Positions 41,992-61,820 of a stretch of 64,000 bases of DNA are shown here, piece by piece. The notes under the pieces are model-generated. The model saw only the letters and a program-made list of their open reading frames with translations. It was not told where the DNA came from and did not search any database. The translations under genes and the position numbers were made by a program. Position 1 is the first letter of the stretch, and the number at the start of each line of letters is the position of its first letter. The stretch is taken from assembly GCA_949286725.1 (NCBI GenBank), contig CASECZ010000002.1, positions 420,632 to 484,631 of the forward strand. The letters run 5' to 3'. The DNA comes from an uncultured Clostridia bacterium (GTDB taxonomy: Bacteria > Bacillota > Clostridia > Christensenellales > CAG-917).

Positions 41992-42011
41992 CGGCTTTTT
42001 AACGTATTCGG

Positions 42012-42046
42012 AGCGGAAGACCGCGTTGCGGTTTTCCGCTTTTTTG
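42012..42046 (+). terminator. rho-independent terminator
   Basis: AGCGGAAGACCGC-GTT-GCGGTTTTCCGCT plus TTTTT. Confidence 0.8.
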
Positions 42047-42220
42047 TTGCTTTGAGAGCTGCTTTTCGCCCGCACGCGAAAAATGTCTCATTATGTCGTA
42101 CTCCCAAGGGGCTATGCGTACTTTAAGGGGGAGCTTTTATTTATAATGTGAATATGTTTTTCGTACGGGCGGCCGCGTGCGCATATCCGCGTCGGCGCGT
42201 CGTGCGTATAAGGAGCGCGA

Positions 42221-42793: not shown

Positions 42794-42850
42794 TCACTCC
42801 GCCTTTTTTGGTTGTCAATAAGCCGAAAGGCATAAAATACGGAGGTTTCT

Positions 42851-44128: not shown

Positions 44129-44206
44129 GCAAAAACTTTCGTTTATCGGCGGGGAGCAATCCCCGCCGATAACGAACACTCGTTGTTCAATTACGGAGGG
44201 AACTGT

Positions 44207-46070: not shown

Positions 46071-47262
46071 AAAGAGCGAAAGAGAGCCGTTGTTCCGCAT
46101 AGTCAAGCGCGACAATCTGCCCAAGTGGCAGGCTTGGATTATACGCATTGTTGCCGTGTTCGTAGCGCTCGGCATAAGTGCGGCGGTCAGCGCTATTCTT
46201 ACCGACGGGGCAAGCGTAGGACAATTCTTCAAAGGATTGTTCGAAGGCGTTTTCAGTACGAAGAACACCATCCTCAAATTCTTCCAGAATACGGCGATTA
46301 TGCTCATCATCGCGCTCGCGCTCGCGCCTGCGTTCAAAATGAAGTTCTGGAATATCGGCGCCGAAGGGCAGGTGCTTGTCGGCGGACTTGCGTGTATCGT
46401 TTGCATCAAGTCCTTCGGACCTTCCCTCAACAACTGGGCGCTGCTCATAATAATGCTTGCTTTGAGCATCGGGTTCAGCGTCGTGTGGGCTGTCATACCC
46501 GCTATTTTCAAGGCAAAATGGAAGACCAACGAAACTCTGTTCACGCTGATGATGAACTACGTTGCTATGCAACTCGTCGCGGTCTGCATTTACCTATGGG
46601 TTCCCAACGGCTCGGCGGTGCTCGGAACTTTGCCTTATGGACACCTGCCTAAACTCGGTGGCGTAAATTATATTTTCAACATCATAATCGTGGCCGCCAT
46701 AATGGTGCTGATATTCATATACTTCCGTTTCAGCAAGCACGGTTACGAACTGTCCGTCGTCGGCGAGAGCGAAAATACCGCGAAATACGTCGGTATCAAC
46801 GTCAAGAAAGTCATCATCCGCACAATGATACTTTCGGGCGTGCTGTGTGGCGTTGCGGGTTGGCTGCTGGTCGCAGGCACCGACCACTCCCTTACGACCA
46901 ATACCGTCGACAGCAGGGGATTTACGGCAATCCTCGTCGCGTGGCTCGGAAAGTTCAATCCGTTCTTTATGGGTTTCACTTCTATGCTTTACGTGTTCAT
47001 AGATCAGGGCGCCGCGCGTCTTGCAAGCAACTACGGAATGGGAGATTCGTTCTCGGACATCATCACGGGTATATTCTTCTTCTTCGTCATAGGGTGCGAG
47101 TTCTTCATCAACTATAAGATAAAGTTCCGCTCCTTCGGAAAACACCGCGGCACAGTATCACCCGAACCCGAAACGACGGTTGAGGGTGAAATTTCCGCCG
47201 ACGCCTTTGCAGACGATGAAGCGGTTCCCGCCGTCAACGTCACAGAGGAGGTAAATGCGTAA
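46060..47262 (+). CDS. ABC transporter permease (BMP-type system, first permease)
   Basis: Polytopic, 400 aa. The start overlaps the ATPase stop. Confidence 0.85.
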   Translation: MLNRKSEREPLFRIVKRDNLPKWQAWIIRIVAVFVALGISAAVSAILTDGASVGQFFKGLFEGVFSTKNTILKFFQNTAIMLIIALALAPAFKMKFWNIGAEGQVLVGGLACIVCIKSFGPSLNNWALLIIMLALSIGFSVVWAVIPAIFKAKWKTNETLFTLMMNYVAMQLVAVCIYLWVPNGSAVLGTLPYGHLPKLGGVNYIFNIIIVAAIMVLIFIYFRFSKHGYELSVVGESENTAKYVGINVKKVIIRTMILSGVLCGVAGWLLVAGTDHSLTTNTVDSRGFTAILVAWLGKFNPFFMGFTSMLYVFIDQGAARLASNYGMGDSFSDIITGIFFFFVIGCEFFINYKIKFRSFGKHRGTVSPEPETTVEGEISADAFADDEAVPAVNVTEEVNA

Positions 47263-48218
47263 TGTTTCTGACCTTCCTTCAAAGTTCCATTCGTTTCAGT
47301 GCCATATTCCTGTTCGGCTCTGTAGGCGAAACCCTGACGGAAAAGTCCGGTAACCTCAACCTCGGCATTCCCGGCATTATGTGTATGGGCGCCGCAGGCG
47401 GCATAATCGGCGAGGCGGCCTATATCAAATCCCTTTCCGACCTAAGCGAGATGACGGGAGCCGGAGCTACATTATCGGCAATTCTTATGGCTATGTTGTT
47501 CGCAGCGATAGGCGGTTTGATTTATTGTTTCCTTACAACGTCGCTCCGTTGCAATCAGAACGTCACGGGTCTTGCCCTTACCACTTTCGGCGTGGGCATA
47601 CTCAGTTTCTTCGGCGGTCGTGCAACCACGACGGGTTTCAGCGCGGCAAGTCTTTACTTCAAACAAACGTTCTCGTTTGCGCAGGACCTTGGATGGTTCA
47701 GTCAACTGTTCTTCTCTTATGGTTCGTTGGTCTACATTGCGTTTTTCATAGCGATTATTGCGGCAATAGTACTGAAAAAGACGCGCATTGGTCTTAACCT
47801 GCGCGCCGTCGGCGAAAATCCCGCCACTGCGGACGCTGCGGGTATCTCCGTCACCAATTACAAGTACGCTGCAACGCTCATAGGCAGTATGATTGCGGGT
47901 CTCGGCGGTCTGTTCTACATTATGGATTACCTCGGCGGCAGTGTAGAATATTCCATTGACAAGTTCGGATGGATGGCGGTCGCGCTCGTCATATTCACCG
48001 TGTGGCGTCCCAACTGGGCAATCCTCGGTTCCATTCTGTTCAGTATGCTGTATCTGTTGCCGAACTATATCTCGGTGTCGTTCGCGCAAAAGGAAATCAT
48101 CAAAATGGTGCCGTATCTCGTCACGATTATAGTTCTTGTTCTGACCAGCATTTTGAGCCGCAGGGAAAGCCAGCCGCCCGCGTCGCTCGGCGTCACGTAT
48201 TTCCGAGAAGAACGATAG
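47262..48218 (+). CDS. ABC transporter permease (BMP-type system, second permease)
   Basis: Polytopic, 318 aa. TAATG overlap with the upstream gene. Terminator at 48236-48262. Confidence 0.85.
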   Translation: MFLTFLQSSIRFSAIFLFGSVGETLTEKSGNLNLGIPGIMCMGAAGGIIGEAAYIKSLSDLSEMTGAGATLSAILMAMLFAAIGGLIYCFLTTSLRCNQNVTGLALTTFGVGILSFFGGRATTTGFSAASLYFKQTFSFAQDLGWFSQLFFSYGSLVYIAFFIAIIAAIVLKKTRIGLNLRAVGENPATADAAGISVTNYKYAATLIGSMIAGLGGLFYIMDYLGGSVEYSIDKFGWMAVALVIFTVWRPNWAILGSILFSMLYLLPNYISVSFAQKEIIKMVPYLVTIIVLVLTSILSRRESQPPASLGVTYFREER

Positions 48219-48235: not shown

Positions 48236-48262
48236 AAAAGGCACGCCCCCGCGTGCCTTTTT
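48236..48262 (+). terminator. rho-independent terminator
   Basis: GGCACGC-CCCC-GCGTGCC plus TTTTT. Confidence 0.8.
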
Positions 48263-48383: not shown

Positions 48384-49385
48384 ATGCGTGCGACATTGAA
48401 GTTTTTGAGTGAAAAGAGCGGTTTGTCCATTACCGCCATTTCTCTTATTCTGAACGATAAGCCTGTACGCGTTGCCCCCGAAAAGAAAAAACTGGTAAAA
48501 GAGCTTGCGGCAAAATACAACTATAAACCCAATATGACTGCGGTTGCCTTGGTAACAAGGAAAACAAAAACCATAGGACTGATTTTGCCTGATATCGTGA
48601 ATCCGTTTTTTGCCGTTGTCGCCAGTGAAATCGACAAAAAGTTTCACGACGCAGGATACAATATCATCTTGTGCAATACAAACAGCGATACGTCGCTCGA
48701 AAACCAATACGTGGAGATGCTGGACGAAAAGCGCGTGGAAGCTCTTGTGATTTGTGCGTCGGACGAAAGAAAACCGTGCGATTTGAGCGGATTTTACGAG
48801 CAGGGTATACCTGTTATATTTTTTGACAGATATTACGAAGATTCAAAACTGGTTGTTTCTATTGACAATGCCGAAGGTGCGAGGCAAGCCGTAAAATATC
48901 TTATCGATAACGGACACAGAAATATTGCAATGATTACCGGTCCGTTGAATTACCGTTCGGCGCAAGCACGACTTGACGGTTACAAATGTGCGTTTGAAAA
49001 CTCCGGCATAGAGATAAACGACAACCACATCGTGGTCGGCGACTATACGTTTGCGGGTGGAAAGGCAGCCGCCGAAAAAATATTGAAGTATAAAGAGGTC
49101 AGTGCGATTTTCGCAAGCAACGACCTTATGGCATACGGCGTTATCAAAGAACTTTCCGACAAGGGGAAGAAAATCCCCGACGACATTTCTGTTGTCGGTT
49201 TTGACGATTTGAATTTTTCGCAGATGCTTCGAACTCCGTTGACGTCCGTAAAGCAAAATCTCAAAGAACTCGCCGAAAGCGTGTTCGAGTTGACAATGAA
49301 GGCAATGAGCGGTCATATTGCGCCTGTGCATAAAGTCATAAAAACAAGACTTGTCGAAAGAGAAAGCGTGAAAAATCTGTCCTGA
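48384..49385 (+). CDS. LacI-family transcriptional repressor
   Basis: N-terminal HTH (..TLKFLSEKSGLSITAISLILND..) plus a periplasmic-binding-protein-like effector domain. Confidence 0.9.
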   Translation: MRATLKFLSEKSGLSITAISLILNDKPVRVAPEKKKLVKELAAKYNYKPNMTAVALVTRKTKTIGLILPDIVNPFFAVVASEIDKKFHDAGYNIILCNTNSDTSLENQYVEMLDEKRVEALVICASDERKPCDLSGFYEQGIPVIFFDRYYEDSKLVVSIDNAEGARQAVKYLIDNGHRNIAMITGPLNYRSAQARLDGYKCAFENSGIEINDNHIVVGDYTFAGGKAAAEKILKYKEVSAIFASNDLMAYGVIKELSDKGKKIPDDISVVGFDDLNFSQMLRTPLTSVKQNLKELAESVFELTMKAMSGHIAPVHKVIKTRLVERESVKNLS

Positions 49386-49487
49386 ACCTCGGTATATACT
49401 TTCCAAACGCACGATTGCAGGGCGGCAATCGGTCTGAAAGCGAGTGCTTTGTATGTCGTTTATTTTCCGTTAATTCGATTTTGGGTA

Positions 49488-49516
49488 TTGACAAACTTAT
49501 GGCGGCATTTTATAAT
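49488..49516 (+). promoter_or_regulatory. promoter (TTGACA-17-TATAAT) of the PHP-hydrolase/ABC/ribokinase operon
   Basis: TTGACA at 49488-93 and TATAAT at 49511-16. Confidence 0.65.
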
Positions 49517-49521
49517 GAACC

Positions 49522-49541
49522 CAGATAAAACCTTTTATCAG
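49522..49541. promoter_or_regulatory. LacI-type operator O1 (imperfect palindrome CAGATAAAAC|CTTTTATCAG)
   Basis: 8 of 10 half-site symmetry. It starts 6 nt after the -10 box. Confidence 0.55.
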
Positions 49542-49586
49542 TTCAAAAATTTGCACGAGATGATGGCTTTATTATTTTTTTTGGGC

Positions 49587-49604
49587 TGATAAAACGTTTT
49601 ATCA
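49587..49604. promoter_or_regulatory. LacI-type operator O2 (perfect 18-bp palindrome TGATAAAACGTTTTATCA)
   Basis: Perfect dyad with a central CG, as in LacI/CcpA-type sites. It lies about 30 nt before the start codon. The centre-to-centre distance to O1 is 64 bp. Confidence 0.65.
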
Positions 49605-49634
49605 AAAGATTTATGTTAAGGGGGTACGAAAGAG

Positions 49635-51095
49635 TTGAAAAAGTCAAAGTTTTTCATTTTTGTCGTAGTTCTCGTGTTGCTGTGTTCTCTGTCTTTTGCG
49701 CTTGTCGCTTGTAACGGAAACGAAAACGAAGTCGCACCGGACAGCGACACCGATAAACAGGAAAAACCTCAATATACCGCGTCGGTCGCTTATACGGGCA
49801 GTGGTATAGAAATTATGCCCGGCAAGGACCGTCCCGTGTATACGGCCACAGTTCGCGGCGTGGTTGTCGACGAGGATACGGGCGAACCTTTGATTTCTCA
49901 GTTGAAAATCTGGGATAAGACGGAAAACCTCGTTTATCGTACGGTCACGGACTATCTGGGGCGTTACGAACTGGTTTTGCCGGACGGCAACTACGACATC
50001 GAATTCAGTCACGGCAGCGAATACGAAATCGAAACGCTGTCCGATTACAGCGTTTACACAAACGGTTATTTCAAAATGCCCGATATTTCTTTGAAAAGAC
50101 TTTATTCGCTGGGGAACTGGTACGCGGGCGATATTCATCAACACAGCACATACAGCGACGGCACGGATTTGCCTAGTGAAGTGCTTAAATCCAATATTGC
50201 CGTCGGACTGTCCTACGGCATTCTTTCGGACCACAACAGCGTGTATCAGGTTAAGGAATGGCTTGCCGGAAATAATTTCTATATCGGAGGCGGGAAGAAT
50301 TTCATTGCAATGCAAGGTTGGGAGGTAACAACGTCGAGAGGACATTATCAGGCTATAAATTGCAGCGAAATTTTCAATGCCACCGCATATTCGTCCAGCG
50401 ACATTCTGCGAATAGTCAACGATATACGTTTGCAGCCCGACACCATCGCTCAGATAAATCACCCCGGACGCAGCGACGATATGGGCTTCAAGGATTGGAA
50501 TCTTGCGGGACGTTTCGACACAATCGAGGTTTGGAACGGCGTGTATGCTCCTCCTTCTCTCAGCGGTACAAACAAAAACAGTTATGCGAAATGGGTTGAA
50601 CTTATGAACAAGGGCACGCGACTTGCCATTGTCGGAGGAACTGACAATCATAACATTTACGGCACGCCCTATGCACCCGACGGAAACGACCTCGATTGGA
50701 TAAAGCGAAATACTTATTCCGGCAGCCCGAGAACGTATGTGTTCACCGACGAATATTCGTCGGACGGCGTATTGAATGCCATTAAGCAGGGTAATTCGTT
50801 CATAACCAACGGTCCGTTGGTGTTTGCCGACATCGCAGGCAAAAAATACGGTGAAACCGTAGCGCTGGACGACAGTATGGTGCTCAATTTCGACCTCAAA
50901 TCCAACGAAGAACTCAGACAGTTGAAGATATTCGTCAACGGCGCGCTTGTCGAGACCATAGACATCGCGGACGGCACGTTGACTTATCAGGGTACGTTCA
51001 AGCTGGAAAATCTGAAATCGGGTGATTGGGTCAATTTGCAACTGTCGGGGGATTTCGGAGGATTTGCAGTGACAAACCCCATTTTTATCGGTTGA
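49635..51095 (+). CDS. surface lipoprotein: carboxypeptidase-regulatory-like domain plus PHP-type (CehA/McbA-family) metallohydrolase
   Basis: TTG start. Lipobox LVAC|NGN. PHP metal motifs GDIHQHSTYSDG, SDHN, INHPGR, GGTDNHN. Confidence 0.8.
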   Translation: MKKSKFFIFVVVLVLLCSLSFALVACNGNENEVAPDSDTDKQEKPQYTASVAYTGSGIEIMPGKDRPVYTATVRGVVVDEDTGEPLISQLKIWDKTENLVYRTVTDYLGRYELVLPDGNYDIEFSHGSEYEIETLSDYSVYTNGYFKMPDISLKRLYSLGNWYAGDIHQHSTYSDGTDLPSEVLKSNIAVGLSYGILSDHNSVYQVKEWLAGNNFYIGGGKNFIAMQGWEVTTSRGHYQAINCSEIFNATAYSSSDILRIVNDIRLQPDTIAQINHPGRSDDMGFKDWNLAGRFDTIEVWNGVYAPPSLSGTNKNSYAKWVELMNKGTRLAIVGGTDNHNIYGTPYAPDGNDLDWIKRNTYSGSPRTYVFTDEYSSDGVLNAIKQGNSFITNGPLVFADIAGKKYGETVALDDSMVLNFDLKSNEELRQLKIFVNGALVETIDIADGTLTYQGTFKLENLKSGDWVNLQLSGDFGGFAVTNPIFIG

Positions 51096-51134
51096 ACAAA
51101 ATGTAATGAAAATTACATAAAACGGAGGTAAATT

Positions 51135-52022
51135 ATGAAAAAATTTGCAATTTTACTGATTGTGATTATGGTTGTCGCCGGTGTGCTCGTGGCTTGCAAC
51201 GACAGCGGTTCCGCAAGCAACGACAACACTCCCAAAGCCGATATCGTAGTCAACAATATCAAAACGCTGAATGCGGGAATTACGGCGGTTTATCAGAATG
51301 AAGACGGAGAATTCATCGCGACGCACCGTTCGAAATTCAAGGTCGTGGACGATGACTTTACGGTAAACGAACTCGTTCAGTTATTCTTCGATAAGTCCTA
51401 CGGCGTGACCGCACTCGACGCAGACGGGAACGGCTCCATCGACCAGCTCACTCTTTCATACGGCAATTGGCCCGATATTACCGACATTACTTTGCCCAAT
51501 ACCGACGAGATGCAGTGGGTTATACGTGACAGTTCTTATAAGATTGTTGCCGATACCACAGCTTCGGTTGTCGACAATGCGGAGTATTACTACAGCTACG
51601 AAAAGATTGACAATCCCGTTCCTTTTACGGCAGCCGACCTTTCGCAGATTGCCGATGCCGACAATAAACCCAATTTTTACATCAACAACGTCAGCACAAA
51701 AACCGTAAAACTTGTCCTCACCGCACAAAAAGCCGACAAATCCGTTGAAACTATGTTTGACGGGACGCTTCAGATTACCGATGACGATTTGACCTTCGAA
51801 GAAGTCATCAAAGCGGCTTGCGATGCAAGAGGAATTCTTTACAGTATCAGTGCCGGCTTTGTCAATTCTATCGGCGTGTACGCAAACGATATGACCGTGT
51901 CTGCCTGGTGGACGGGTGGATTTACGGTCGACGGTGTCGAATACGGCAACTATTCCGGCATTCACGTGATTCCGGTCGGTGACGGCGCCGAACTTTATAT
52001 GAGTTACAGATACAACGCGTAA
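51135..52022 (+). CDS. lipoprotein with two DUF4430-like (transcobalamin beta-domain-like) repeats
   Basis: Lipobox LVAC|NDS. Both halves follow the DUF4430 pattern (..TV.ELV......G........G.V.SI.G......W...V.G.......DG......Y). Assigned by eye only. Confidence 0.55.
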   Translation: MKKFAILLIVIMVVAGVLVACNDSGSASNDNTPKADIVVNNIKTLNAGITAVYQNEDGEFIATHRSKFKVVDDDFTVNELVQLFFDKSYGVTALDADGNGSIDQLTLSYGNWPDITDITLPNTDEMQWVIRDSSYKIVADTTASVVDNAEYYYSYEKIDNPVPFTAADLSQIADADNKPNFYINNVSTKTVKLVLTAQKADKSVETMFDGTLQITDDDLTFEEVIKAACDARGILYSISAGFVNSIGVYANDMTVSAWWTGGFTVDGVEYGNYSGIHVIPVGDGAELYMSYRYNA

Positions 52023-52110
52023 GCGGTATGTAACCGATAAACCGATATCGGTTTGAGCAGTCGCATCCGCCGCGAGTTCGTTGCGGATGCGGTTGCAACG
52101 GAGACTGACT

Positions 52111-53274
52111 ATGAAAAAATCAAAATTTATTTCGATTATACTGGTGCTGTGCGTGATAGTTTCGTGCGTTTTTGCACTGACTGCGTGCCTTGACAGTGAC
52201 GACGGCGGCGAATTCGACCCCGAAACCGCCAGAATTGCGTTGTTGGTAAACGGTACCCTCGGGGATAAGTCGTTTTTCGATTCGGCGAACGAGGGACTTC
52301 AAAAAATCAAAGCCGCTTATCCCAACACAACCGTCAAAGCCATCGAAATGGGCACGGACAGCACAAAATTCCGCAATTTTGTGGATGACGCTTGCGAAGA
52401 GTACGATATCATAATTATGGGTACTTGGCAGATGTATAACCATATGGCGTATGCAACCGTCGAATATCCCGACAAGAAATTTATTCTCTTCGATTACGCA
52501 GGCGACTTTTCCGACGGTAAGGGCGCAAATAACCTTTACTCGATAGAATTCAAACAGAATCAGGTCGCATTCCTCGGCGGAGTGCTTGCGGCACAGATTG
52601 CCAACGACCCGAGCCTTCCTCTGTCGAACGGGAGCAAACAGCTTGGTTTCATAGGTGGGGCGGACTCTCCGATTATCAAGGATTTTCTTGTCGGATTTAT
52701 CGAAGGTGTGCATTATGCGGACCCCAATTTCGATGCATCGAAACCCGCAAACGACCCTGCCAATGCAAACAAGATAACCGTTCAGAGCAGCTTTATCGGC
52801 ACCTTCCTTGACCCGACGCGTGCAAAGGACCAGGCGAATATCCTTTACGACAGGGGTTGTGACCTCGTTTTTGCGGCGGCTTCTCAGGCAGGACTCGGAG
52901 CGCTGGACGCGGCAGTCGATAACAATAAATATTATCTCGCCTGCGACTCGGACCAAATCAGACTTTTTGCCGACCAGCCCGCAAAACAACGTTATATTGT
53001 CGGCAGTGTTTTGAAAAAAGTCGACGTTGCTCTTTTCCGTGCTTTCGAAAAAATCGTGAACGACGAAATGCAGTGGGGCACCAACGAAAGAGTGGGCTTC
53101 GATGAGGATTGTATAGGATTTATCGGCTACAACAGCGACATTCCTCAGAATATGATTGATTTTGTCGAAGAGACGGAAGCAAAACTCAGAGCGGGGCAAA
53201 TCACCGTTACCACCGCAATCGGAAGCGGTGCGGAGATGTCCATTGTGGACGGCATTATAGCTGCGGCAAAATAG
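52111..53274 (+). CDS. BMP-family ABC substrate-binding lipoprotein
   Basis: Lipobox LTAC|LDS and BMP-like sequence (..IGFIGGADSPIIKDF..GF..G). Confidence 0.85.
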   Translation: MKKSKFISIILVLCVIVSCVFALTACLDSDDGGEFDPETARIALLVNGTLGDKSFFDSANEGLQKIKAAYPNTTVKAIEMGTDSTKFRNFVDDACEEYDIIIMGTWQMYNHMAYATVEYPDKKFILFDYAGDFSDGKGANNLYSIEFKQNQVAFLGGVLAAQIANDPSLPLSNGSKQLGFIGGADSPIIKDFLVGFIEGVHYADPNFDASKPANDPANANKITVQSSFIGTFLDPTRAKDQANILYDRGCDLVFAAASQAGLGALDAAVDNNKYYLACDSDQIRLFADQPAKQRYIVGSVLKKVDVALFRAFEKIVNDEMQWGTNERVGFDEDCIGFIGYNSDIPQNMIDFVEETEAKLRAGQITVTTAIGSGAEMSIVDGIIAAAK

Positions 53275-53331
53275 AACGAATCAATCCGACGGTGCTGTGT
53301 CCGTGCGGCACGGCACCGTCAAGGAGCTTAT

Positions 53332-54867
53332 ATGGACAACGTCTTGCAACTGGTCGGAATCGGGAGGGTTTACGGCAACGGTATTGTTGCCAACCACGAC
53401 ATAAACCTGGAAGTTCGCAGAGGAGAAATCCACGCAATCGTCGGGGAGAACGGTGCCGGAAAGTCAACGTTGATGAAGATAATTTACGGAATGGAAAAGC
53501 CCAATTCCGGACAGATGTTCGTCAACGGACAGGAAGTGAAGTTTTCTTCTTCTATGGACGCCATCAAAATGAATATCGGTATGGTGCACCAGCACTTTAT
53601 GCTCGTCAATTCGCTGACGGTCGGCGAGAATCTCATTTTGAATATGCCGAAGCGTTTTTTCATCAACAAACGCAAAATCGCGAAACTGACGGAGGAACTG
53701 TGCCAAACGTACGGTTTCAATCTGGACGGAAACGCCGTGGTAAGGGATTTGTCCGTAGGAAATCAACAGCAACTCGAAATACTCAAAGCGCTGTACAGGG
53801 GTGCTCAGATTCTGATACTTGACGAACCCACGGCGGTTTTGACGCCCCAGGAAACGGAAAAACTGTTCGAACAGCTCAAACGCTTGAAAGAGTCGGGACA
53901 TACGATTTTGTTCATCTCACACAAACTCAACGAGATTATCGGCATTTCAGACAGGATTTCCATACTTCGTCAAGGAACGATAGTGGACACTTTCGATACG
54001 TCCGACGTTGACGTAACTCAATTGTCGAATCTGATAGTAGGCAAAGAATTCTGTGAAAAAATCGACAAGCCGGAAATCGAACGCGGTGACGTCGTTCTTG
54101 AAATCGAAGGGTTGTCATATGTGAATTCTTTGAAGAAAAAATTGCTCGACGATATCAGTTTTACGGTTTCGCAAGGTGAAATCGTCGGTATTTGCGGCGT
54201 TGAGGGTAACGGGCAGCGGGAGCTGATACAGTCGGTAGCCGGCAGTATAAAGAATTTTACGGGAAAAATAGAAATCGATAATAACCCCGTCAAAGGAATT
54301 CAGCGCAAAAAGTTGCGTGAAATGGGCGTCGTTCACGTACCCGAAGACAGAATTGCTGAAGGGCTGAGCAAGGATTCGTCCATAGCGGACAATCTTATAT
54401 CCACTTTGTATATCAACGGTAAGTTCGTGAAACACAAATTTTTCCTTGACCGCAAAGCCATCAGGGAATTTTCGGACGAACAGATAGCGAAATACGAAAT
54501 AAAAGCCAACGATTGCGACGATGTGGTGGGAATGTTGTCGGGTGGCAATATGCAGAAGGTGGTCGTGGCAAGAGAATTCGAGGACGCTCCCAAACTGGCA
54601 ATTGTCGACCAGCCCACACGAGGCGTAGACATAGGCGCGTCAAAAATAATCCGCGACAAAATCGTCGAGTTGCGCAACAACGGGTGTGCCGTTTTGCTCA
54701 ACTCGGCGGATTTGTCGGAACTGTTGAGTATCAGCGACAGAATACTGGTCTTTTACAGCGGCAAAATCGTTGCCGATTTTAACAGACCTAAAGAAATAAA
54801 CGAGGAAACGCTGGGCAGATATATGCTTGGGTTGGACAATATGTTCGGCGATAAAGACGATGAATAA
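53332..54867 (+). CDS. double-NBD ABC transporter ATP-binding protein (intact)
   Basis: Walker A GENGAGKST and GVEGNGQRE. Signatures LSVGNQQ and LSGGNMQK. 511 aa. Confidence 0.9.
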   Translation: MDNVLQLVGIGRVYGNGIVANHDINLEVRRGEIHAIVGENGAGKSTLMKIIYGMEKPNSGQMFVNGQEVKFSSSMDAIKMNIGMVHQHFMLVNSLTVGENLILNMPKRFFINKRKIAKLTEELCQTYGFNLDGNAVVRDLSVGNQQQLEILKALYRGAQILILDEPTAVLTPQETEKLFEQLKRLKESGHTILFISHKLNEIIGISDRISILRQGTIVDTFDTSDVDVTQLSNLIVGKEFCEKIDKPEIERGDVVLEIEGLSYVNSLKKKLLDDISFTVSQGEIVGICGVEGNGQRELIQSVAGSIKNFTGKIEIDNNPVKGIQRKKLREMGVVHVPEDRIAEGLSKDSSIADNLISTLYINGKFVKHKFFLDRKAIREFSDEQIAKYEIKANDCDDVVGMLSGGNMQKVVVAREFEDAPKLAIVDQPTRGVDIGASKIIRDKIVELRNNGCAVLLNSADLSELLSISDRILVFYSGKIVADFNRPKEINEETLGRYMLGLDNMFGDKDDE

Positions 54868-56002
54868 AATTGATATCAAGAGTGCATTTTCCAATGCATA
54901 CCAAAAATTCAAAACAAAACGTGACGCCAGAAGTATGTCCAAAAAGGTCGAGTCGATAAAGATTCAGACCGAATTGCTCCGTACCGCCGTAGCCATCGTA
55001 GCGGCTTTCTGCGTGGCGCTCATCATCATTCTTTGCGTAAGCGACCAGCCGATGGAAGCGTTTGAATATCTGGTTCTCGGACCGCTTATGAAACCGAGAT
55101 ATTTCAATCAGGTACTTGTGCAGATGGTTCCCATTGCGCTGACGGGGCTGGCTCTTGCGCTAATGCTGAAAGCGGGGCAATTCAATCTTGCCACGGAAGG
55201 CGCGTTCATACTCGGAGGGGTTTTTGCCGCGTTGGTTGCTATAAGAGTGGCTCTCCCTCTCGGCATACATCCCATTCTTGCCATTGTCTTCGGCATAATC
55301 GGCGGTGTGATTATATGCGTTATACCCGCAATTTTGAAAATATCTTTCAAAATATCCGAAATGGTGGTTTCGCTTATGATGAATTACATTGCACTGCGAA
55401 TAGGCAATGTAATCATAAGAGGCGCGCTGTTGGACGAAACCGCGGGAATACTTACGACCAAGGAATTTCTCGATTCCGCAAAGATGTCGGTAATACCCGT
55501 CGGCGAACTCGAAATACAGGTTGCGCTTGTCATTATGATAATCGTCGTCGTCGGTTTCTATATTTATCTAAGCAAAACGAGAAACGGATACGCGTTGCAA
55601 TTGAGCGGGTTGAACGGACGCTTCCTTGCCTTTTCGGGTATAGGCGTGAGCGGCTTGGTGTTGACGTCGCAAATTATGGGCGGTGCGGTCGCAGGCGGTG
55701 CGGGCGCTATGTATACGCTCAGCAACCTCGAAAGGTACGACCTGGTGAATACTTTTCCGAACAAGGGCTTCGACGGAATGATAGTGACAATCCTTGCCCG
55801 CAACAATCCCTTGCTTGTTCCGGTTGCGGCATTCTTTATCGCCTATGTGAGAGAAGGGGCGGAAATAATGTCGAGGCATACCGACGTTTCGGTCGAAATT
55901 ATGTCCATAATTCAGGGCATAATCATCATTCTGGTCGCAGGACAGGCCCTGTTCTCCAATATGCAGAACAAACGCATTATAAAGGAGGTCGCAAATGGAT
56001 GA
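54860..56002 (+). CDS. ABC transporter permease
   Basis: Polytopic. The start overlaps the ATPase stop. Confidence 0.85.
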   Translation: MNKIDIKSAFSNAYQKFKTKRDARSMSKKVESIKIQTELLRTAVAIVAAFCVALIIILCVSDQPMEAFEYLVLGPLMKPRYFNQVLVQMVPIALTGLALALMLKAGQFNLATEGAFILGGVFAALVAIRVALPLGIHPILAIVFGIIGGVIICVIPAILKISFKISEMVVSLMMNYIALRIGNVIIRGALLDETAGILTTKEFLDSAKMSVIPVGELEIQVALVIMIIVVVGFYIYLSKTRNGYALQLSGLNGRFLAFSGIGVSGLVLTSQIMGGAVAGGAGAMYTLSNLERYDLVNTFPNKGFDGMIVTILARNNPLLVPVAAFFIAYVREGAEIMSRHTDVSVEIMSIIQGIIIILVAGQALFSNMQNKRIIKEVANG

Positions 56003-56999
56003 TTTCTTCAATATAATCTTTTCAAACGAATTCATCGTTTCCGTATTGCGCTTGTCAACGCCTATACTGTTTGCGGCTCTCGGTGCGCTTATTTCGAATA
56101 AGGCCGGGGTAGTCAATATCGGACTTGAAGGAATAATGCTGTTTTCGGCGCTGTTCGGAGTGTTGGGCAGTTTCTGGACGGGCGATTTGTTCACGGGCGG
56201 ACTCATAGGTGTGCTGATAGGTGCTCTGGTAAGCGCGGTGCTGGCGTTTTCCACCCTGTATTTGAAATCGGACATAATACTGACCGGTGTTGTGATAAAC
56301 CTTATCGGAGCAGGAGGAACCATATTCTTTCTGGAAGTATTTACGGGCGACAAAAACGTTTCGACGTCCATAGTCAGTCAGGTGTTTCCTAACATCGATT
56401 TTCCTGCCATAAGCAACGTTCCGTTTATAGGAGGATTGCTCAGCGGACACAACGTGCTAACCTGGGTTGCCGTGGCGCTCGCCGTAATACTGTGGTTTGT
56501 AATCAACAAAACTCATTTCGGACTTAAACTCCGTGCCGTGGGCGAAAATCCGCTTGCCGCAAGCAGCCTCGGCATTTCCGTCAAAAAGCATAAATTCGTT
56601 GCGATAGTGCTCAGCGGAGTTCTGGCATCCGTAGGCGGTATTTTTCTGTCGATGGGATACGTTTCATTCTTTGCCGCAAATATGACAGCAGGGAGAGGGT
56701 TTATCGCATTGGCGGCAGAGGCAATGGCAATGGGCAATCCGTTGTGGACGATGTTGAGCAGTTTGCTGTTCGGTTTTATGTCGGCAATTGCCATTGCTTT
56801 CGGGTCCAGCGGCTTTCTTGCCATATTCAACGAAATATTCGAAATGTTGCCTTACGTGGCAACCATTGTCGCTCTCATCATATATGCGGTGATAGCGAAG
56901 CAAAGAATTAAAATGTTAGAGGTAAAAAATGGAAAAGGCTTGGGAAAGAGAATACAGGATGATGTGCGCCGCCGTCCCTCGTGTTTTAGAAGAAGATGA
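55995..56999 (+). CDS. ABC transporter permease
   Basis: Polytopic. AAGGAGG RBS. Its 3' end overlaps the next gene by 71 nt. Confidence 0.8.
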   Translation: MDDFFNIIFSNEFIVSVLRLSTPILFAALGALISNKAGVVNIGLEGIMLFSALFGVLGSFWTGDLFTGGLIGVLIGALVSAVLAFSTLYLKSDIILTGVVINLIGAGGTIFFLEVFTGDKNVSTSIVSQVFPNIDFPAISNVPFIGGLLSGHNVLTWVAVALAVILWFVINKTHFGLKLRAVGENPLAASSLGISVKKHKFVAIVLSGVLASVGGIFLSMGYVSFFAANMTAGRGFIALAAEAMAMGNPLWTMLSSLLFGFMSAIAIAFGSSGFLAIFNEIFEMLPYVATIVALIIYAVIAKQRIKMLEVKNGKGLGKRIQDDVRRRPSCFRRR

Positions 57000-58320
57000 A
57001 CAGGGATGGTTGTTTGCCGAAACCATAGAAAAACTCGATGATACGTTGCTCAAAATGAAATGGAAGAGTAACGTGCCCGGTTCCAATGCACCGGAAAGAG
57101 TGATTATAGGCGCGATAGCCGATATGGGAAATATGGGTTACGACGTGTCCGAAGCGGAAAAACTCATCGACGAAGGGCTTTCGTGTTACGACAAAAACGA
57201 TATGCCGGGACTGAATCGTGTGACCTGGCGTATATGGAACGCACTCAACAATGCTCCGAAAATCGAAGGGCACGAATATTTTTCGTACGAAGTGTACGAT
57301 TCCTTCGAAAAGTACAAACGTACCGTCGACACCAAACTGAAATTCGACGAACCCGACAAGTACGGTAAGGATTTTTCGGAAAGGACCTATTACGGTTGGG
57401 TTGCACAGATTGTCGGAGGCGCAATAGGTACCGCAATCGAAGGTTATGTGACCGAACAAATCGAAAAAGCTTTCGGAAACGTTGACGGTTATGTGCGTGA
57501 GCCGAACACTTACAACGACGATATCACATACGAAATTGCGTTTCTGATTGCGGCGTCCCGCAAGGGTAAGAACGTGACATCCGCGGATATAGCAGAGGAG
57601 TGGGCTGCGCTGGTTCCTTTCGGTTGGTCTGCGGAAGAGTGGGCGTTGAAAAACATAAAAAGCGGCATATATCCTCCTGAAAGCGGTTATATGAACAATC
57701 CGTACAGGGAGTGGATTGGTGCGCAAATGCGCGGGGCGGTGTGCGGAATGGTTGCCCCGGGCAATCCCGTGCTGGCCGCCGATTACGCTTTCAGAGACGG
57801 AGTCGTTTCGCATCACAACAACGGCGTTCTGGGTGAGATTTTCAATGCGGTTATGGTGTCGTTGGCTTACGTCAAAAAGGACGTGAGGGAAATACTGGAA
57901 CTTGCAATAGACAAATACCTGCCGCACGACAGCGAATATTACAGCGTAGTAAAATTCGCTCTCGACCGTTGCAAAGAATACGGAAGTTGGAAACAGGCGT
58001 GGGAAAAAGCACGTGAAAAGTACAAAAAGTATAACTGGGTGCACGCATATCCCAATGCGGCGTCGGAAGTCATATCACTGTGGTACGGAAACGGTGATTT
58101 CGATTACACAATGAATATTTCTTCTATGATAGGGTATGACGTTGACTGCAATGCGGCGCAGATTGCAACCGTTCTCGGTATAATCGGCAAAGAACGCACC
58201 GTAAGCGAAAGGTGGACGGCACCGATAGGGGACAAGCTGAAAACTTATCTCAGACAGTATAAAGAAATAAGCATAAAGAAACTTGCGGAATATACTGTCG
58301 ACATCAGCAAAAAAATGTAA
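56929..58320 (+). CDS. ADP-ribosylglycohydrolase-fold protein with a ~160-aa N-terminal extension
   Basis: IVGGAIGTAIEG, NDDITYE, and GYDVDCNAAQIATVLGII match the conserved metal-site segments of the DraG/ARH family. AGAGGT RBS before 56929. Confidence 0.75.
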   Translation: MEKAWEREYRMMCAAVPRVLEEDEQGWLFAETIEKLDDTLLKMKWKSNVPGSNAPERVIIGAIADMGNMGYDVSEAEKLIDEGLSCYDKNDMPGLNRVTWRIWNALNNAPKIEGHEYFSYEVYDSFEKYKRTVDTKLKFDEPDKYGKDFSERTYYGWVAQIVGGAIGTAIEGYVTEQIEKAFGNVDGYVREPNTYNDDITYEIAFLIAASRKGKNVTSADIAEEWAALVPFGWSAEEWALKNIKSGIYPPESGYMNNPYREWIGAQMRGAVCGMVAPGNPVLAADYAFRDGVVSHHNNGVLGEIFNAVMVSLAYVKKDVREILELAIDKYLPHDSEYYSVVKFALDRCKEYGSWKQAWEKAREKYKKYNWVHAYPNAASEVISLWYGNGDFDYTMNISSMIGYDVDCNAAQIATVLGIIGKERTVSERWTAPIGDKLKTYLRQYKEISIKKLAEYTVDISKKM

Positions 58321-58334
58321 GATAAGGTAATGCT

Positions 58335-59291
58335 ATGAAAACGATTTTTGTTATGGGTAGCTTGAATATGGACGTTTCTTTCGACGTCGATAATTTGCCT
58401 AAAAACGGCGAAACCGTGAATTCGCGCAATCTGCTTGTCAATCTGGGAGGTAAAGGCGCGAATCAGGCCGTTGCTGCCGCAAAACAGAACGCTAACGTAG
58501 TTATGTTAGGTGCAGTCGGCAACGACCAATTCGGAGAACAATTGCTCAAAAGTCTGAAAGAGACCGGTATTGCGTCTGAGTTGGTAATAAGAAAAGAATG
58601 CGGCACGGGAGTTGCGGGAATTTTGTTGCATAACGGCGACAATCGTATAATCATACACGGAGGGGCAAATTCTTCTTACGAATACGACGATTTTGCTCAG
58701 ATACTTTCCAAACAGGCAAAGCGCGGAGATATATTCGTTACGCAGCTGGAAACCAGAAACGATACCGTGATAAACGGTCTGAAACTGGCGAAAAGGTTGG
58801 GAATGCTCACCATTCTTAACCCCGCACCGGCGTCGTCGGACGCCACGGTTGCGTTGCAGTACAGCGATATTCTCATTCCCAACGAAACGGAGACCGAGAT
58901 ACTTGTCGGCATTTATCCTCATCGCGACAATTATGCCGAACTCAAAAAACGTTTTCGTCAAATGGGAGCCGACAAAATCATTATAACTTGCGGCGATAAA
59001 GGCTGTGTTTTGCTGGACGAAGAAATCAAAGTCTACAACGCTTACAAGGTCAAGGCAGTCGACACAACGGCAGCGGGAGATACGTTTATAGGTGCGCTTG
59101 CGGCGGTTTTGGCAAAAGGACGCAATATAGGCGAGGCAATCGAATATGCGACGGCTGCTTCCGCAATTGCCGTGACGCGCAAAGGCGCGCAATGTTCGAT
59201 TCCCGTTGAAAAAGAAGTGTCGGAATTTTTGAAACGCACCGATTCACCGTGTGAAAACGGTGTTACAGTCAGAACGGCAATGGCAATTTAG
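58335..59291 (+). CDS. rbsK: ribokinase (PfkB family)
   Basis: GSLNMD..GGKGANQAVAAAK, the NE motif, DTTAAGDTFIGAL. Confidence 0.85.
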   Translation: MKTIFVMGSLNMDVSFDVDNLPKNGETVNSRNLLVNLGGKGANQAVAAAKQNANVVMLGAVGNDQFGEQLLKSLKETGIASELVIRKECGTGVAGILLHNGDNRIIIHGGANSSYEYDDFAQILSKQAKRGDIFVTQLETRNDTVINGLKLAKRLGMLTILNPAPASSDATVALQYSDILIPNETETEILVGIYPHRDNYAELKKRFRQMGADKIIITCGDKGCVLLDEEIKVYNAYKVKAVDTTAAGDTFIGALAAVLAKGRNIGEAIEYATAASAIAVTRKGAQCSIPVEKEVSEFLKRTDSPCENGVTVRTAMAI

Positions 59292-59361: not shown

Positions 59362-59597
59362 CGGTTTATAAGCGAATTGCTGGTGCGAACGTTCGGAGCG
59401 TTTCATCATCGGAAAACCCCGCGGATTATTTATTGCGGGCAATGATTTTTGCGATTGCGACGATGTTCGCAACGAGGAAGGCCGAAACAGAAAAAAACTA
59501 TCCGAGGTGTTCGGATAGTTTCGTTATGGTGGAGCAAATGCACACAAATTCGAATAAAACAAAAACCTAAACCGATTTATTCGATTTAGGTTTGATT

Positions 59598-59674
59598 TGG
59601 TGGAGCTTAGGGGATTCGAACCCCTGACCCCTTGACTGCCAGTCAAGTACTCTAGCCAACTGAGCTAAAGCCCC
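59598..59674 (-). tRNA. tRNA-Ala (anticodon GGC), CCA encoded
   Basis: The reverse complement folds as a cloverleaf: acceptor GGGGCTT/AAGCTCC with the G3:U70 alanine identity pair, anticodon loop CT-GGC-AG, T-loop TTCGAAT. A TTGTGC-17-TAATAT promoter and a downstream terminator lie on the minus strand. Confidence 0.9.
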
Positions 59675-59921
59675 TTGTCGCTTTGTTATATTAACGCAAA
59701 AATTCGTTTTGCACAAGCAATTTGCGCAAATTCGCGGGCGGGCGGGGCATTTTTTTTCAGAGGGACGGCGTTGAGCCGCGTCGCCCGACAGAATTTCTTA
59801 ATGATGGAGTTATATTTTTTCAACATTCTTGACAAATCGTTCGGAATAGTGTTTACTTTATATATAATGTAATTATATATCGACCGTTTTTGGCGATAAA
59901 AAATTGTGTAAGGCGGGTATT

Positions 59922-61820
59922 ATGGAAGATTTGAACGTTTCGTCCGTACAAGCAACCGACGCCGCCGTGGCGGAGCCCAAACGAACAATATGGCATAAAT
60001 TGTTCGGTTCCGTTCCCGGTGACGGTGAAATGCAACCCAAAGAGGGCATCTGCTATTCGCTGTGCGGGTTCGGTCAGAACCTTATCTGCACGGTAATCGG
60101 CTCTTACCTTACGGTGTTTATGACAGACGCCATAGGGTACAGCGCGATAGCGGTTGCTCTTTTGATGTTGTTCGCGCGCATTTACGACGCTTTGAACGAC
60201 CCGATTATGGGTTCCATTGTTGACAGAACGCGCACGAAATGGGGCAAATGCCGTCCTTATCTCAAATGGATGGCTTTGCCGATTGCGGGTATGACGATAC
60301 TGTGTTTCATGCCCGTTTACGGAAGCGATTGGGGCAGCTTTGCGGCGATATCCATCGTCTACATAATCTGGGGTATGGTGTACACCGTTGCCGACGTTCC
60401 TTACTGGGGACTGTCCACGGCAATGTCCAACGACACTTACCGCCGCGGCAATCTGCTCACCATAGCGCGACTGTTGTGCACGGCAGGTGCCGGTCTTGTC
60501 ACCATCATCGTTCCTCAGATTACTTCCAATATGACGGCTGACGCTGCCGAACAGGTCAAGGCATATCAGACGCTCATAACCGCCATTCACCAGTCCGGGT
60601 TCAACCTCGACGAGAACGCGCTCAGCTCTTTGGGCAGCATTCAGGCGTACGTGGCACAGCTCATCAACTCCAATCAGGGTGCGGGCGTTGCCTCCATACT
60701 TGCCGCTCTCGCAGGCGTAACGGCACTCAAGAATCCGCTTTACACGGGCGCAATCGTCACCGGCGCGGATTTGCAGAATGCAATCGACGCGACCCGCGGC
60801 GACATGCAGAACGAACTCAGCTGGATTTATTTTGTCATTGCAATCGTCTGTGTCGTGGTGGCGGTGCCTCTGTTCTATCTCGGTTTCAAGAACACCCGCG
60901 AAAGAAACCAGACGATGGAAAAACCCCCGTCTTTGAAACACAACCTCCAACTCCTGTTCAAGAACAAGCCTCTTATGCTCATCGTCATATCGGGCGTGCT
61001 CGGCGCGGCGAGAATGGTGTTCACCTATACGGGCGGTCTGTACTTTGCGAAATACGTGCTCGCGGACGTCAACTTCCTCGGCATGCAGGGCGAAGGTCTT
61101 TACACTCTGATAACCCTCGCCGTCGTTCCCGGCGGTCTGGTCGCATCTCTCATGGTGCCGTATCTCACGAAGAAAATCGGCAAGAAACAGTCCTATATCT
61201 GGTCGCACATCGTCGGCGGTATCGCGTTGCTCATCGCGTTCATCATCGGTATGGCAATCGACAAGGGCAACTACACCTCCACCGCGACGCTGGTCATCGC
61301 GTTTATCGCGCTGGTCATTGCGGGCGTGCCGTCCGGTCTCAGCAACATCGTGTCTTACGCAATGATAGGCGACACGGTCGAATATCTCGAGCTCAAGACG
61401 GGCGAACGTGCGGAAGGCATATGCTTTGCAATGCAGACCTTCATCAACAAAATCGGTATGGCGGTCGGCGCGTTCATCGGCGTTCTCGGCTACTACATGG
61501 CAGGCGTAACGGCGAACAACCCCGGCGCACTCGACTCCGACGGCAAAGACGTCATGTGGATTATGCTGATGCTGGTCGCGGCAATAAGCTTCATCGCGGC
61601 GGCAATCCCGATTTTCTTCTACAAGTTCAACGAAAAAGAACAGGTTGAAGCGGCGGCGGAAATCAAGCGTCGTAAAGAGGCGGCGGCAGGTGAAATCACC
61701 GTGACCGACACCGTCGAAACCGTAGAGAACGGCGATACGGTCGAAACCGTTGAAACAATCGAAATCACCGAGGTCGAGGAAACGGCAACAACGCCCGAAG
61801 AGGACGACGACAAAGAGTAA
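59922..61820 (+). CDS. MFS transporter, glycoside-pentoside-hexuronide (GPH) family-like, with a central insert and an acidic repeat tail
   Basis: ..DALNDPIMGSIVDRTRTKWGKCRPY.. is the typical GPH loop 2-3 motif. About 633 aa. Confidence 0.8.
   Translation: MEDLNVSSVQATDAAVAEPKRTIWHKLFGSVPGDGEMQPKEGICYSLCGFGQNLICTVIGSYLTVFMTDAIGYSAIAVALLMLFARIYDALNDPIMGSIVDRTRTKWGKCRPYLKWMALPIAGMTILCFMPVYGSDWGSFAAISIVYIIWGMVYTVADVPYWGLSTAMSNDTYRRGNLLTIARLLCTAGAGLVTIIVPQITSNMTADAAEQVKAYQTLITAIHQSGFNLDENALSSLGSIQAYVAQLINSNQGAGVASILAALAGVTALKNPLYTGAIVTGADLQNAIDATRGDMQNELSWIYFVIAIVCVVVAVPLFYLGFKNTRERNQTMEKPPSLKHNLQLLFKNKPLMLIVISGVLGAARMVFTYTGGLYFAKYVLADVNFLGMQGEGLYTLITLAVVPGGLVASLMVPYLTKKIGKKQSYIWSHIVGGIALLIAFIIGMAIDKGNYTSTATLVIAFIALVIAGVPSGLSNIVSYAMIGDTVEYLELKTGERAEGICFAMQTFINKIGMAVGAFIGVLGYYMAGVTANNPGALDSDGKDVMWIMLMLVAAISFIAAAIPIFFYKFNEKEQVEAAAEIKRRKEAAAGEITVTDTVETVENGDTVETVETIEITEVEETATTPEEDDDKE

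Follow-up and report, generated by a model that had tools for sequence, protein, structure and literature searches.

A nine-gene locus at positions 48384-59291 of a 64,000-nucleotide stretch from an uncultured Clostridia bacterium (Christensenellales, CAG-917; assembly GCA_949286725.1, contig CASECZ010000002.1, positions 420,632 to 484,631; hereafter the window) may well encode a system for riboside scavenging and ribose salvage under the control of a repressor. We hold this reading with about even confidence; in it, an enzyme of the ADP-ribosylglycohydrolase (ARH) fold probably acts on a substrate outside the range of IUNH-type nucleoside hydrolases. In the list of open reading frames (ORFs) and their translations, the nine ORFs are tightly packed on the plus strand, in the order LacI-family repressor, PHP/CehA-McbA lipoprotein, double DUF4430-like lipoprotein, BMP-family binding lipoprotein, ATP-binding cassette (ABC) ATPase, permease 1, permease 2, ARH-fold protein and ribokinase. 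The operon proper comprises the eight co-directional genes downstream of the LacI gene together with their promoter and operators (Table 1). A preliminary description, made from the DNA letters, had reported this co-directional string, and every gene of it was recovered at its position on the plus strand; profile hidden Markov model searches of Pfam and NCBIfam agreed with its assignments to the LacI, CehA/McbA, Bmp, ADP_ribosyl_GH and ribokinase families. Its proposal of LacI-gated riboside uptake and ribose salvage is supported by the gene content, by the operators and by the conserved linkage of the ARH, BMP-ABC and ribokinase genes. More broadly, its logic of import, de-ribosylation and phosphorylation is plausible, as is surface trimming, but its views that the ARH protein stands in for IUNH and that the locus is the counterpart of Escherichia coli yegTUV need correcting.

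To place the locus in context, we scanned one genome per GTDB species, which gave at least 590 places encoding an ARH relative, and surveyed the best 80 of these loci with 10-kb flanks where the contig allowed (about 21 kb per locus). An importer of the BMP-ABC type was present in 71 of the 80 loci and a ribokinase in 58, so that the linkage of ARH to both, put forward in the preliminary description, is strongly conserved; 45 loci had a LacI gene. IUNH genes were found in 37 loci, a PHP gene in 24 and a DUF4430 gene in 29. None of the 80 loci combined IUNH with PHP or DUF4430, and no IUNH gene lay within 10 kb of any PHP/DUF4430 locus. Two architectures can be told apart. Type A, to which the window belongs, has the order (AraC or LacI), PHP, DUF4430, BMP, ABC, ARH, RbsK and occurs in Bacilli, Acholeplasmatales, Izemoplasmatales, Christensenellales and similar lineages. 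Type B has the order BMP, ABC, IUNH, IUNH, (amidohydrolase), ARH, LacI, RbsK and occurs in Clostridium, Cohnella, Paenibacillus, Caproiciproducens, Caldanaerobacter, Tindallia and others. The first IUNH of type B is RihA-like (461 bits against a cut-off of 433), a RihC-like IUNH is also present, and the amidohydrolase, found in 15 type B loci, resembles methylthioadenosine/S-adenosylhomocysteine/5'-deoxyadenosine deaminases (Tm0936, PDB 4F0R).

The ARH proteins are 53% identical between types A and B and 57-58% identical within a type, and 100 of their columns are at least 97% invariant across both. In the BMP proteins, likewise, 64 columns reach 90% invariance or more across the two architectures, and group-specific differences are confined to six positions, all conservative. 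Because these columns are common to both types, the loci are built on one conserved core, BMP-ABC, ARH and ribokinase (plus LacI), which is joined in some loci by a PHP/DUF4430 module at the surface and in others by an IUNH/deaminase module in the cytoplasm. Within this pattern the nearest relatives of the window's ARH, ribokinase and LacI proteins are of type A (66-69%, 47-52% and 44-49% identity, respectively), whereas for the window's transporter genes the type B/IUNH loci are the nearer ones (38-52% versus 32-49% identity). One type A-like locus, L002 (CAYPLR010000008.1), is labelled 'uncultured Bacteroidales', but its gene order and flanks are those of the Bacilli metagenome-assembled genomes (MAGs) at L004 and L017, and its bin assignment is probably wrong. 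Other genes near ARH in the survey, among them RecJ, MutS/MutL/MiaA, RNase R, NTP-transferase and HypD, appear to be housekeeping genes with no connection to it.

These two architectures bear directly on what the ARH enzyme does. The preliminary description had noted that the locus has no IUNH-type hydrolase and that the ARH gene sits exactly where one would be expected. The first point holds for the whole 64-kb window: IUNH (PF01156) had no match among the nine proteins in Pfam searches and no tblastn match in the window. The second does not, because in the 37 IUNH-containing loci the ARH gene lies beside two IUNH genes. We also considered that the ARH protein of window-type loci had been altered to take over the role of IUNH, and rejected this; no type-specific ARH residues were found when loci with and without IUNH were compared. 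The ARH protein thus contributes an additional activity alongside IUNH and does not merely stand in for it. The same ARH, free of type-specific residues, stands beside RihA-like and RihC-like IUNH enzymes in type B, which suggests that its substrate lies outside their range; most likely it is a riboside that IUNH cleaves poorly, being α-linked, O-linked or carrying an unusual base, such as might be derived from NAD, ADP-ribose or modified RNA. Characterized ARH enzymes cleave α-configured C1'' bonds to N, O or another ribose, and α- or O-linked and unusual-base ribosides are for this reason the most economical guess.

An alternative is that the ARH protein is a broad-specificity hydrolase of canonical β-ribonucleosides, an IUNH analogue with which the locus performs ordinary nucleoside and RNA scavenging by means of a non-orthologous enzyme. 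We consider this possible but somewhat unlikely. It would fit the absence of IUNH from the window and from every PHP/DUF4430-type locus surveyed, the relationship of the BMP protein to the nucleoside-binding proteins BmpD and PnrA/TmpC, the resemblance of the window's transporter to that of IUNH-containing loci, and a repressor whose nearest models include UriR, PurR and CytR beside RbsR. On the other hand, such an enzyme would be redundant in the 37 loci with two IUNH genes, one of them RihA-like and above its cut-off; no residues separate the ARH proteins of the two kinds of locus; and the known chemistry of the fold concerns α C1'' linkages, not β-N-ribosides.

Three observations tie the ARH enzyme to ribokinase: the co-occurrence of ribokinase in most of the loci surveyed; the position of ARH in type A loci, where it is the only glycosidic hydrolase adjoining a ribokinase, an enzyme that needs free ribose; and a natural fusion. 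We therefore infer that the ARH enzyme hydrolyses a ribosyl C1 bond, with release of ribose. The fusion protein, P0306 (locus L086, 6460-8820), is a distant relative in which an ARH core is joined to a ribokinase-like PfkB domain (TIGR02152, 264 bits). Its operon encodes a LacI protein, a CUT1-type ABC transporter, a second ARH gene and a protein with an FGE-sulfatase domain, which suggests that ARH and ribokinase modules serve several transporter types. Further fusions among distant relatives (P0287, P0219 and P0266: LacI-family::ARH, HTH_3::ARH and ARH::3-keto-disaccharide-hydrolase-like) may be genuine genes or gene-calling read-throughs.

We next examined the ARH protein itself. It consists of a helical N-terminal domain that is specific to the family (residues ~1-150) and has invariant positions of its own, followed by the ARH core; distant ARH relatives align only from about residue 147 or 196 and lack the N-terminal domain. 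Its N terminus (MxKAWE...; K3, A4 and E8) is conserved in homologues, which supports a start at 56929 and a length of 463 residues, although this start overlaps the end of permease 2 by 71 nucleotides (56929-56999) and gene callers place it 10-11 codons later on identical contigs (452-453 residues). A large protein database holds 1601 clusters of homologues at 90% identity, the closest 120 of which are 437-474 residues long and have names no more specific than 'ADP-ribosylglycohydrolase family protein'; in a library clustered at 50% identity we counted 391 ARH clusters at E ≤ 1e-30. The closest relatives come from Bacilli and Acholeplasmatales MAGs, and an 18-sequence alignment of homologues with 55-69% identity has a mean column identity of 69%.

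Sequence searches of the PDB were nearly empty for both the ARH and the PHP proteins (the ARH protein had no match, and its family profile matched MJ1187 alone, with an E value of 0.0027), so we turned to comparison of folds. The AlphaFold2 (AF2) model of the ARH protein has a predicted local distance difference test score (pLDDT) of 91.8 and an all-helical ARH fold, which Foldseek matched with probability 1.0 to MJ1187, ARH3, DraG, ARH1 and Tri1, at 11-18% identity and with TM-scores to the target of 0.65-0.73. The motifs GTAIE171G, N196-D197-D198-I-T200 and D404-V-D406-C407-N408 are invariant in 74 family members; their correspondence to other ARH proteins was taken from an hhalign alignment with YegU, and we take E171, D197, D198, D404 and D406 to mark the two-metal-binding motifs of ARH3 and DraG. 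The family thus keeps the acidic ligands and the catalytic Glu, but the classical Thr positions are invariantly N196 and C407. The preliminary description had proposed to ask by structure prediction whether the di-metal site is intact, and had named conserved Asp and Thr residues as its mark: the fold is confidently predicted and the acidic ligands are invariant, yet both Thr positions are replaced throughout the family.

The closest folds also raise the question of whether the ARH protein is catabolic at all. It might instead remove ADP-ribose from protein or nucleic acid in the manner of DraG, its place in the operon reflecting regulation, or it might have lost catalysis. As far as is known, every characterized relative among these folds (DraG, ARH1, ARH3 and Tri1) reverses the ADP-ribosylation of macromolecules. 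Nevertheless, we think this very improbable: the gene is very tightly linked to an importer and a ribokinase, an ARH::ribokinase fusion exists, no ADP-ribosyltransferase was seen among the annotated recurrent families of the 80 loci (non-recurrent neighbours were not annotated), and the invariance of the metal and catalytic residues across 74 sequences argues against loss of catalysis.

The importer that accompanies the ARH protein is of a kind associated with nucleosides. In the PDB, the BMP protein is related to BmpD, BmpA, TmpC/PnrA and pneumococcal PnrA (E values of 2e-18 to 2e-11). Its ORF opens at 52081, and its likely start is MKKSKF at 52111. The closest NCBIfam models of the ABC ATPase are CUT2-type sugar and 'B6' ABC ATPases. 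The ORF of permease 1 opens at 54827 with a likely start at 54860 or later, and gene calls on identical contigs give it 355-380 residues.

Gating of the operon by the LacI protein is well supported by predicted sites. The promoter and two operators lie in the 250 bp that separate the LacI gene from the gene of the first lipoprotein, and the operator motif matches there twice against 0.03 matches expected by chance. As expected for LacI/GalR proteins, the predicted operators are palindromes with a central CG that adjoin a consensus promoter. Relatives of either architecture have this motif (at most 3 mismatches) just 5' of the operon's leading gene: for example, before the PHP gene at L002-L004, L017 and L042, and before the BMP gene at L028, L029 and L037. 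It is the position of the operators at the promoter, together with the retention of the motif in relatives, that makes a case for LacI gating. The NCBIfam models nearest to the LacI protein are RbsR, UriR, PurR and CytR, all below their cut-offs, and it is not an equivalog of RbsR (243 bits against 382) or UriR (203 bits against 550). Its helix-turn-helix domain (PF00356) scored 19.7 bits against a cut-off of 27, and its alignment to the RbsR model spans residues 2-331.

The surface module consists of the PHP and DUF4430-like lipoproteins. The preliminary description had reported three successive lipoproteins with lipoboxes, and LVAC, LVAC and LTAC are indeed legible in the translations; judging from homologous sequences, the PHP, DUF4430 and BMP proteins of related loci are likewise placed at the cell surface, and PHP homologues retain a lipobox or membrane anchor. 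The 486-residue PHP lipoprotein comprises a lipobox, a flexible linker, a carboxypeptidase-regulatory-like β-sandwich, a PHP/CehA-McbA domain and a C-terminal β-sandwich. It scored 16.9 bits against the Pfam PHP model, below cut-off, and the carboxypeptidase-regulatory-like domain is also below threshold as a profile match (27.8 bits against 32.3), but the AF2 model (pLDDT 85), which shows a disordered linker, an N-terminal β-sandwich, a PHP barrel and a C-terminal β-sandwich, places a β-sandwich where that domain had been described. The metal ligands D166/H168/H170, D199/H200, E230, H237, H276 and D337/H339 are invariant in 21 homologues. The PHP protein had no match in the PDB sequence search. 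Among structures, the top Foldseek matches were BVU_3505 and TM0559, both uncharacterized PHP phosphoesterases, followed by RNase AM and then by the 3',5'-bisphosphate (pAp) nucleotidase Cv1693 with bound AMP; the nearest solved folds of known activity thus act on nucleotides. Our best guess is that the PHP lipoprotein is an extracellular nucleotide or oligonucleotide phosphoesterase.

The 295-residue lipoprotein encoded next had no match in Pfam or NCBIfam, and none in Pfam even at an E value of 1. Genes at the same position in related loci match DUF4430 (PF14478; 32-92 bits against a cut-off of 23.8), and a profile built from these positional relatives matches residues 186-291 of the window protein (E = 1.7e-14), while its N-terminal half weakly repeats the C-terminal half (E = 0.002). 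The two DUF4430-like repeats of the preliminary description are supported in this way. The protein has only three close homologues in the large protein database and is fast-evolving, and a literature search on DUF4430 returned nothing functional. We assume that it binds a ligand at the cell surface.

DUF4430 belongs to the family of the transcobalamin/intrinsic-factor β-domain, and one could imagine from this that the DUF4430 protein binds a corrinoid, the PHP protein cuts the nucleotide loop, and the α-riboside of the lower ligand (α-ribazole, α-adenosine and the like) is imported and cleaved by the ARH enzyme. The DUF4430 gene is conserved alongside the PHP gene (29 of the 80 loci have DUF4430), and cobamide lower-ligand nucleosides are α-ribosides, the type of linkage on which ARH enzymes act. 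We nonetheless regard this account as extremely improbable. No cobalamin riboswitch was detected in the window or in seven related loci, nor any other riboswitch that would hint at the substrate, and there are no genes for corrinoid transport or remodelling at the locus; about half of the surveyed loci lack PHP and DUF4430 and have ordinary IUNH genes instead; and an RbsR-like repressor with a ribokinase suggests a bulk carbon source, whereas corrinoids are scarce. A thiamine pyrophosphate riboswitch at 20788-20874 of the window (56.3 bits, slightly over the gathering score) is distant from the locus and unrelated to it.

Genes directly 5' of ARH offer weak hints to the substrate, namely an isochorismatase-family gene in three loci and the amidohydrolase genes, which occupy this position in the 15 type B loci and in two others. 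The first of these is nicotinamidase/pyrazinamidase-like (L045, 9267-9923, with equivalents in L049 and L051; PDB 1ILW, E = 1.8e-9; NCBIfam PncA model, E = 1.6e-9, below cut-off) and occurs in Clostridium collagenovorans, Hathewaya limosa and a Clostridium MAG, at loci without a BMP-ABC importer. The two other amidohydrolase genes (L059, 8623-9972; L071, 8626-9984) are cyclic-amidohydrolase-like (PRK09061-like, 252-268 bits, below cut-off) and come from Clostridiaceae MAGs, with no transporter at either locus.

The isochorismatase-family gene is relevant to a scheme in which the locus scavenges compounds derived from nicotinamide adenine dinucleotide (NAD): the PHP protein would trim NAD or nicotinamide mononucleotide to nicotinamide riboside (plus adenosine), the BMP-ABC transporter would import it, and the ARH enzyme would split it into nicotinamide and ribose. 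A nicotinamidase-like neighbour fits this scheme, NAD-derived ribosyl compounds have a long association with the ARH superfamily, and the adenosine-type deaminase and IUNH of type B would deal with the adenosine half of NAD. We judge it quite improbable, since the isochorismatase link is seen in only three of the 80 loci, all lacking the ABC transporter; nicotinamide riboside is already within reach of IUNH-type enzymes; neither a regulator nor a riboswitch linked to NAD was found in the window (nor, for riboswitches, in the seven related loci); and the combination of LacI and ribokinase points to catabolism of carbon or ribose rather than to vitamin salvage.

Returning to riboside scavenging with ribose salvage, the pathway might run as follows. 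The repressor would sit on its operators until released by an effector, which might be the riboside itself, ribose or one of its phosphates. On the outer face of the cell, the PHP phosphoesterase, held there by its lipid anchor, would strip a phosphate or phosphodiester from a phosphorylated precursor, for which nucleotides, short oligonucleotides and dinucleotide cofactors are candidates, with the double DUF4430 lipoprotein as a possible accessory surface binder. The BMP protein would capture the resulting riboside and the ABC transporter import it; in the cytoplasm the ARH-fold enzyme would hydrolyse the ribosyl C1 bond to give free D-ribose, which the ribokinase would convert to ribose-5-phosphate.

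Several points weigh against this interpretation. To our knowledge, all characterized ARH-fold enzymes act on ADP-ribosyl conjugates, not simple ribosides, and with two classical Thr ligands replaced (N196 and C407) the chemistry of this family may differ from theirs. Literature on a catabolic role of ARH proteins amounted to a preprint on Bacteroides rus loci and incidental mentions, with no paper on the 463-residue family. The roles given to the PHP and DUF4430 proteins are drawn from fold and location alone, and CehA/McbA relatives include carbamate hydrolases, so that a non-phosphate substrate is possible. Genes for IUNH or nucleoside phosphorylase may lie beyond the 64-kb window and the ~21-kb related loci, and our survey covers only the closest 80 of at least 590 loci.

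Table 1 Features of the locus and its boundaries (window coordinates).
Feature	Position	Strand	Evidence or remark
Hairpin and T-run ending the separate upstream BMP-ABC operon	48236..48261	+	Left boundary of the locus
LacI-family repressor, 333 aa	48384..49385	+	Pfam Peripla_BP_1 E 6.9e-36; Peripla_BP_3 E 5.6e-32
Predicted sigma-70-type promoter, TTGACA, 17 nt, TATAAT	49488..49516	+	12/12 consensus positions; top site in the region
Predicted operator 1, AGATAAAACCTTTTATCA	49523..49540	+	2 mismatches to a perfect palindrome; right behind the -10 box
Predicted operator 2, TGATAAAACGTTTTATCA	49587..49604	+	Perfect 18-bp palindrome, 31 nt 5' of the first gene
PHP/CehA-McbA lipoprotein, 486 aa	49635..51095	+	NF038032, 180.2 bits (cut-off 80)
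Double DUF4430-like (transcobalamin β-domain-like) lipoprotein, 295 aa	51135..52022	+	Profile of positional relatives
BMP/PnrA-family binding lipoprotein	52111..53274	+	Pfam Bmp (PF02608), 140.2 bits (cut-off 24.1); LTAC lipobox
ABC ATPase, 511 aa, two fused nucleotide-binding domains	53332..54867	+	ABC_tran, 174.6 bits, two stretches
ABC permease 1	54860..56002	+	BPD_transp_2, 106.8 bits
ABC permease 2	55995..56999	+	BPD_transp_2, 119.4 bits
ARH-fold metalloenzyme, predicted cytoplasmic, 463 aa	56929..58320	+	PF03747, 133.4 bits (cut-off 26.2), residues 156-419
Ribokinase, 318 aa	58335..59291	+	TIGR02152, 313.7 bits (cut-off 299.65); PfkB, 203.6 bits
Terminator-like hairpin downstream of ribokinase	59418..59439	+	Terminator scan; right boundary of the locus
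tRNA-Ala	59598-59674	-	Opposite strand; beyond the right terminator

The locus is set apart from its surroundings by composition as well as by these boundaries. It has a G+C content of 47.1%, whereas the remainder of the window has 54.0%, and at third codon positions the values are 50-58% against 62-69%. Together with the mixed nearest relatives of its genes, this suggests that the locus was acquired by horizontal transfer and is mosaic in origin. The terminator scan lists the left-hand hairpin on the minus strand; its stem is palindromic and the T-run lies on the plus-strand side. Directly upstream is a separate BMP-type ABC operon (37608-48218) with a Bmp binding protein (42851-44128), a 602-residue ATPase with a long insertion and two permeases, preceded by a class-III aminotransferase, an FGGY sugar kinase and a class-II aldolase-domain protein; its substrate is probably not a nucleoside. 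On the other side, past the tRNA gene and outside the operon, a 638-residue MFS_2 sugar-type transporter is encoded on the same strand (59904-61820), and its Pfam match falls in two stretches, suggesting a large insertion.

Many gut and sediment bacteria cannot make nucleotides, and the scavenging of nucleosides and ribose matters there. The ARH family described here is large, very conserved and almost always wired to an importer and a ribokinase, and it has no assigned reaction. Were its substrate identified, riboside catabolism would gain an enzyme class, yegTUV and the ADP-ribosylglycohydrolase genes of Bacteroides rus loci would probably be explained, and the task of the surface PHP and DUF4430 proteins would become clear. 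A bolder view, which we offer as speculation and think unlikely, is that the ARH-fold proteins form an unrecognized class of catabolic 'ribosidases' for IUNH-resistant ribosides, the ribose always being passed to a partner ribokinase. If so, the substrates would be α- or O-linked ribosides, such as 2'-O-ribosyl-nucleosides from poly(ADP-ribose), ribosylated amino acids and the α-nucleosides of cobamide lower ligands; PHP and DUF4430 would be a new extracellular module for trimming and capturing a phosphorylated precursor; and E. coli yegTUV, the ADP-ribosylglycohydrolase genes of Bacteroidetes rus loci and the ARH::ribokinase fusions would all be accounted for.

Among known systems, the uri operon of Corynebacterium glutamicum is closest in logic, along with Bmp/PnrA nucleoside importers generally. 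This operon (UriR-RbsK1-UriT-UriH) encodes a LacI-type repressor, a nucleoside transporter, a nucleoside-cleaving hydrolase and a ribokinase, which together take an imported nucleoside to ribose-5-phosphate; UriR and UriH are both represented by NCBIfam models. The window differs in having an ARH-fold hydrolase where uri has an IUNH, a BMP-type ABC transporter where uri has a secondary carrier, and two additional surface lipoproteins (PHP and DUF4430), and the score of its LacI protein against the UriR model is far under the equivalog cut-off. The PnrA/Bmp importers (Treponema pallidum TmpC/PnrA, Streptococcus pneumoniae PnrA, Borrelia BmpD and Bacillus subtilis NupNOPQ) have the same architecture as the window transporter, with a Bmp lipoprotein, a fused double ATPase and two BPD_transp_2 permeases, but are only distantly similar in sequence; the BMP protein of the window belongs to a distinct subfamily that travels with ARH in both architectures.

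The Bacteroidetes rus loci are centred on a ribokinase, encode variable 'nucleoside-cleaving' enzymes that include ADP-ribosylglycohydrolases, often have LacI-type regulators, and were proposed to liberate ribose from diverse ribose-containing nutrients (bioRxiv 10.1101/574913). The general idea of ARH proteins in ribose-freeing loci is therefore not new, being already in that preprint, and the rus ARH is likewise uncharacterized. Whereas rus loci are SusC/D-based and Gram-negative, the window has the lipoprotein and ABC transporter design of Firmicutes; we liken the two by gene description, not by sequence.

E. coli yegTUV is repressed by GgaR (YegW), and its function is still open, with a link to ADP-glucose and glycogen having been proposed (PMC10819704). 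Like the locus in the window, it places under one repressor a transporter of the nucleoside type, a protein of the ARH superfamily and a kinase of the PfkB family. The preliminary description had called the locus an ABC-type counterpart of yegTUV. Orthology is rejected, however, because YegU is related to the window ARH protein at the superfamily level only (an E value of 0.015 in BLASTP and a probability of 18% in hhalign) and the window ribokinase shares 20% identity with YegV. YegU also lacks the N-terminal domain, and yegTUV has an MFS carrier and a GntR-type regulator where the window locus has BMP-ABC and LacI. The resemblance is one of logic, and yegTUV is an analogue.

Finally, DraG, ARH1, ARH3 and MJ1187 have the fold and the Glu/Asp metal and catalytic motifs in common with the window ARH protein, which differs from them in its low sequence identity, in the additional 150-residue N-terminal domain and in the exchange of Thr for Asn196 and Cys407. 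Unlike the characterized ARH hydrolases, it stands in a catabolic context that is not tied to an ADP-ribosyltransferase, and this suggests that its substrate is a smaller riboside than an ADP-ribosyl conjugate.

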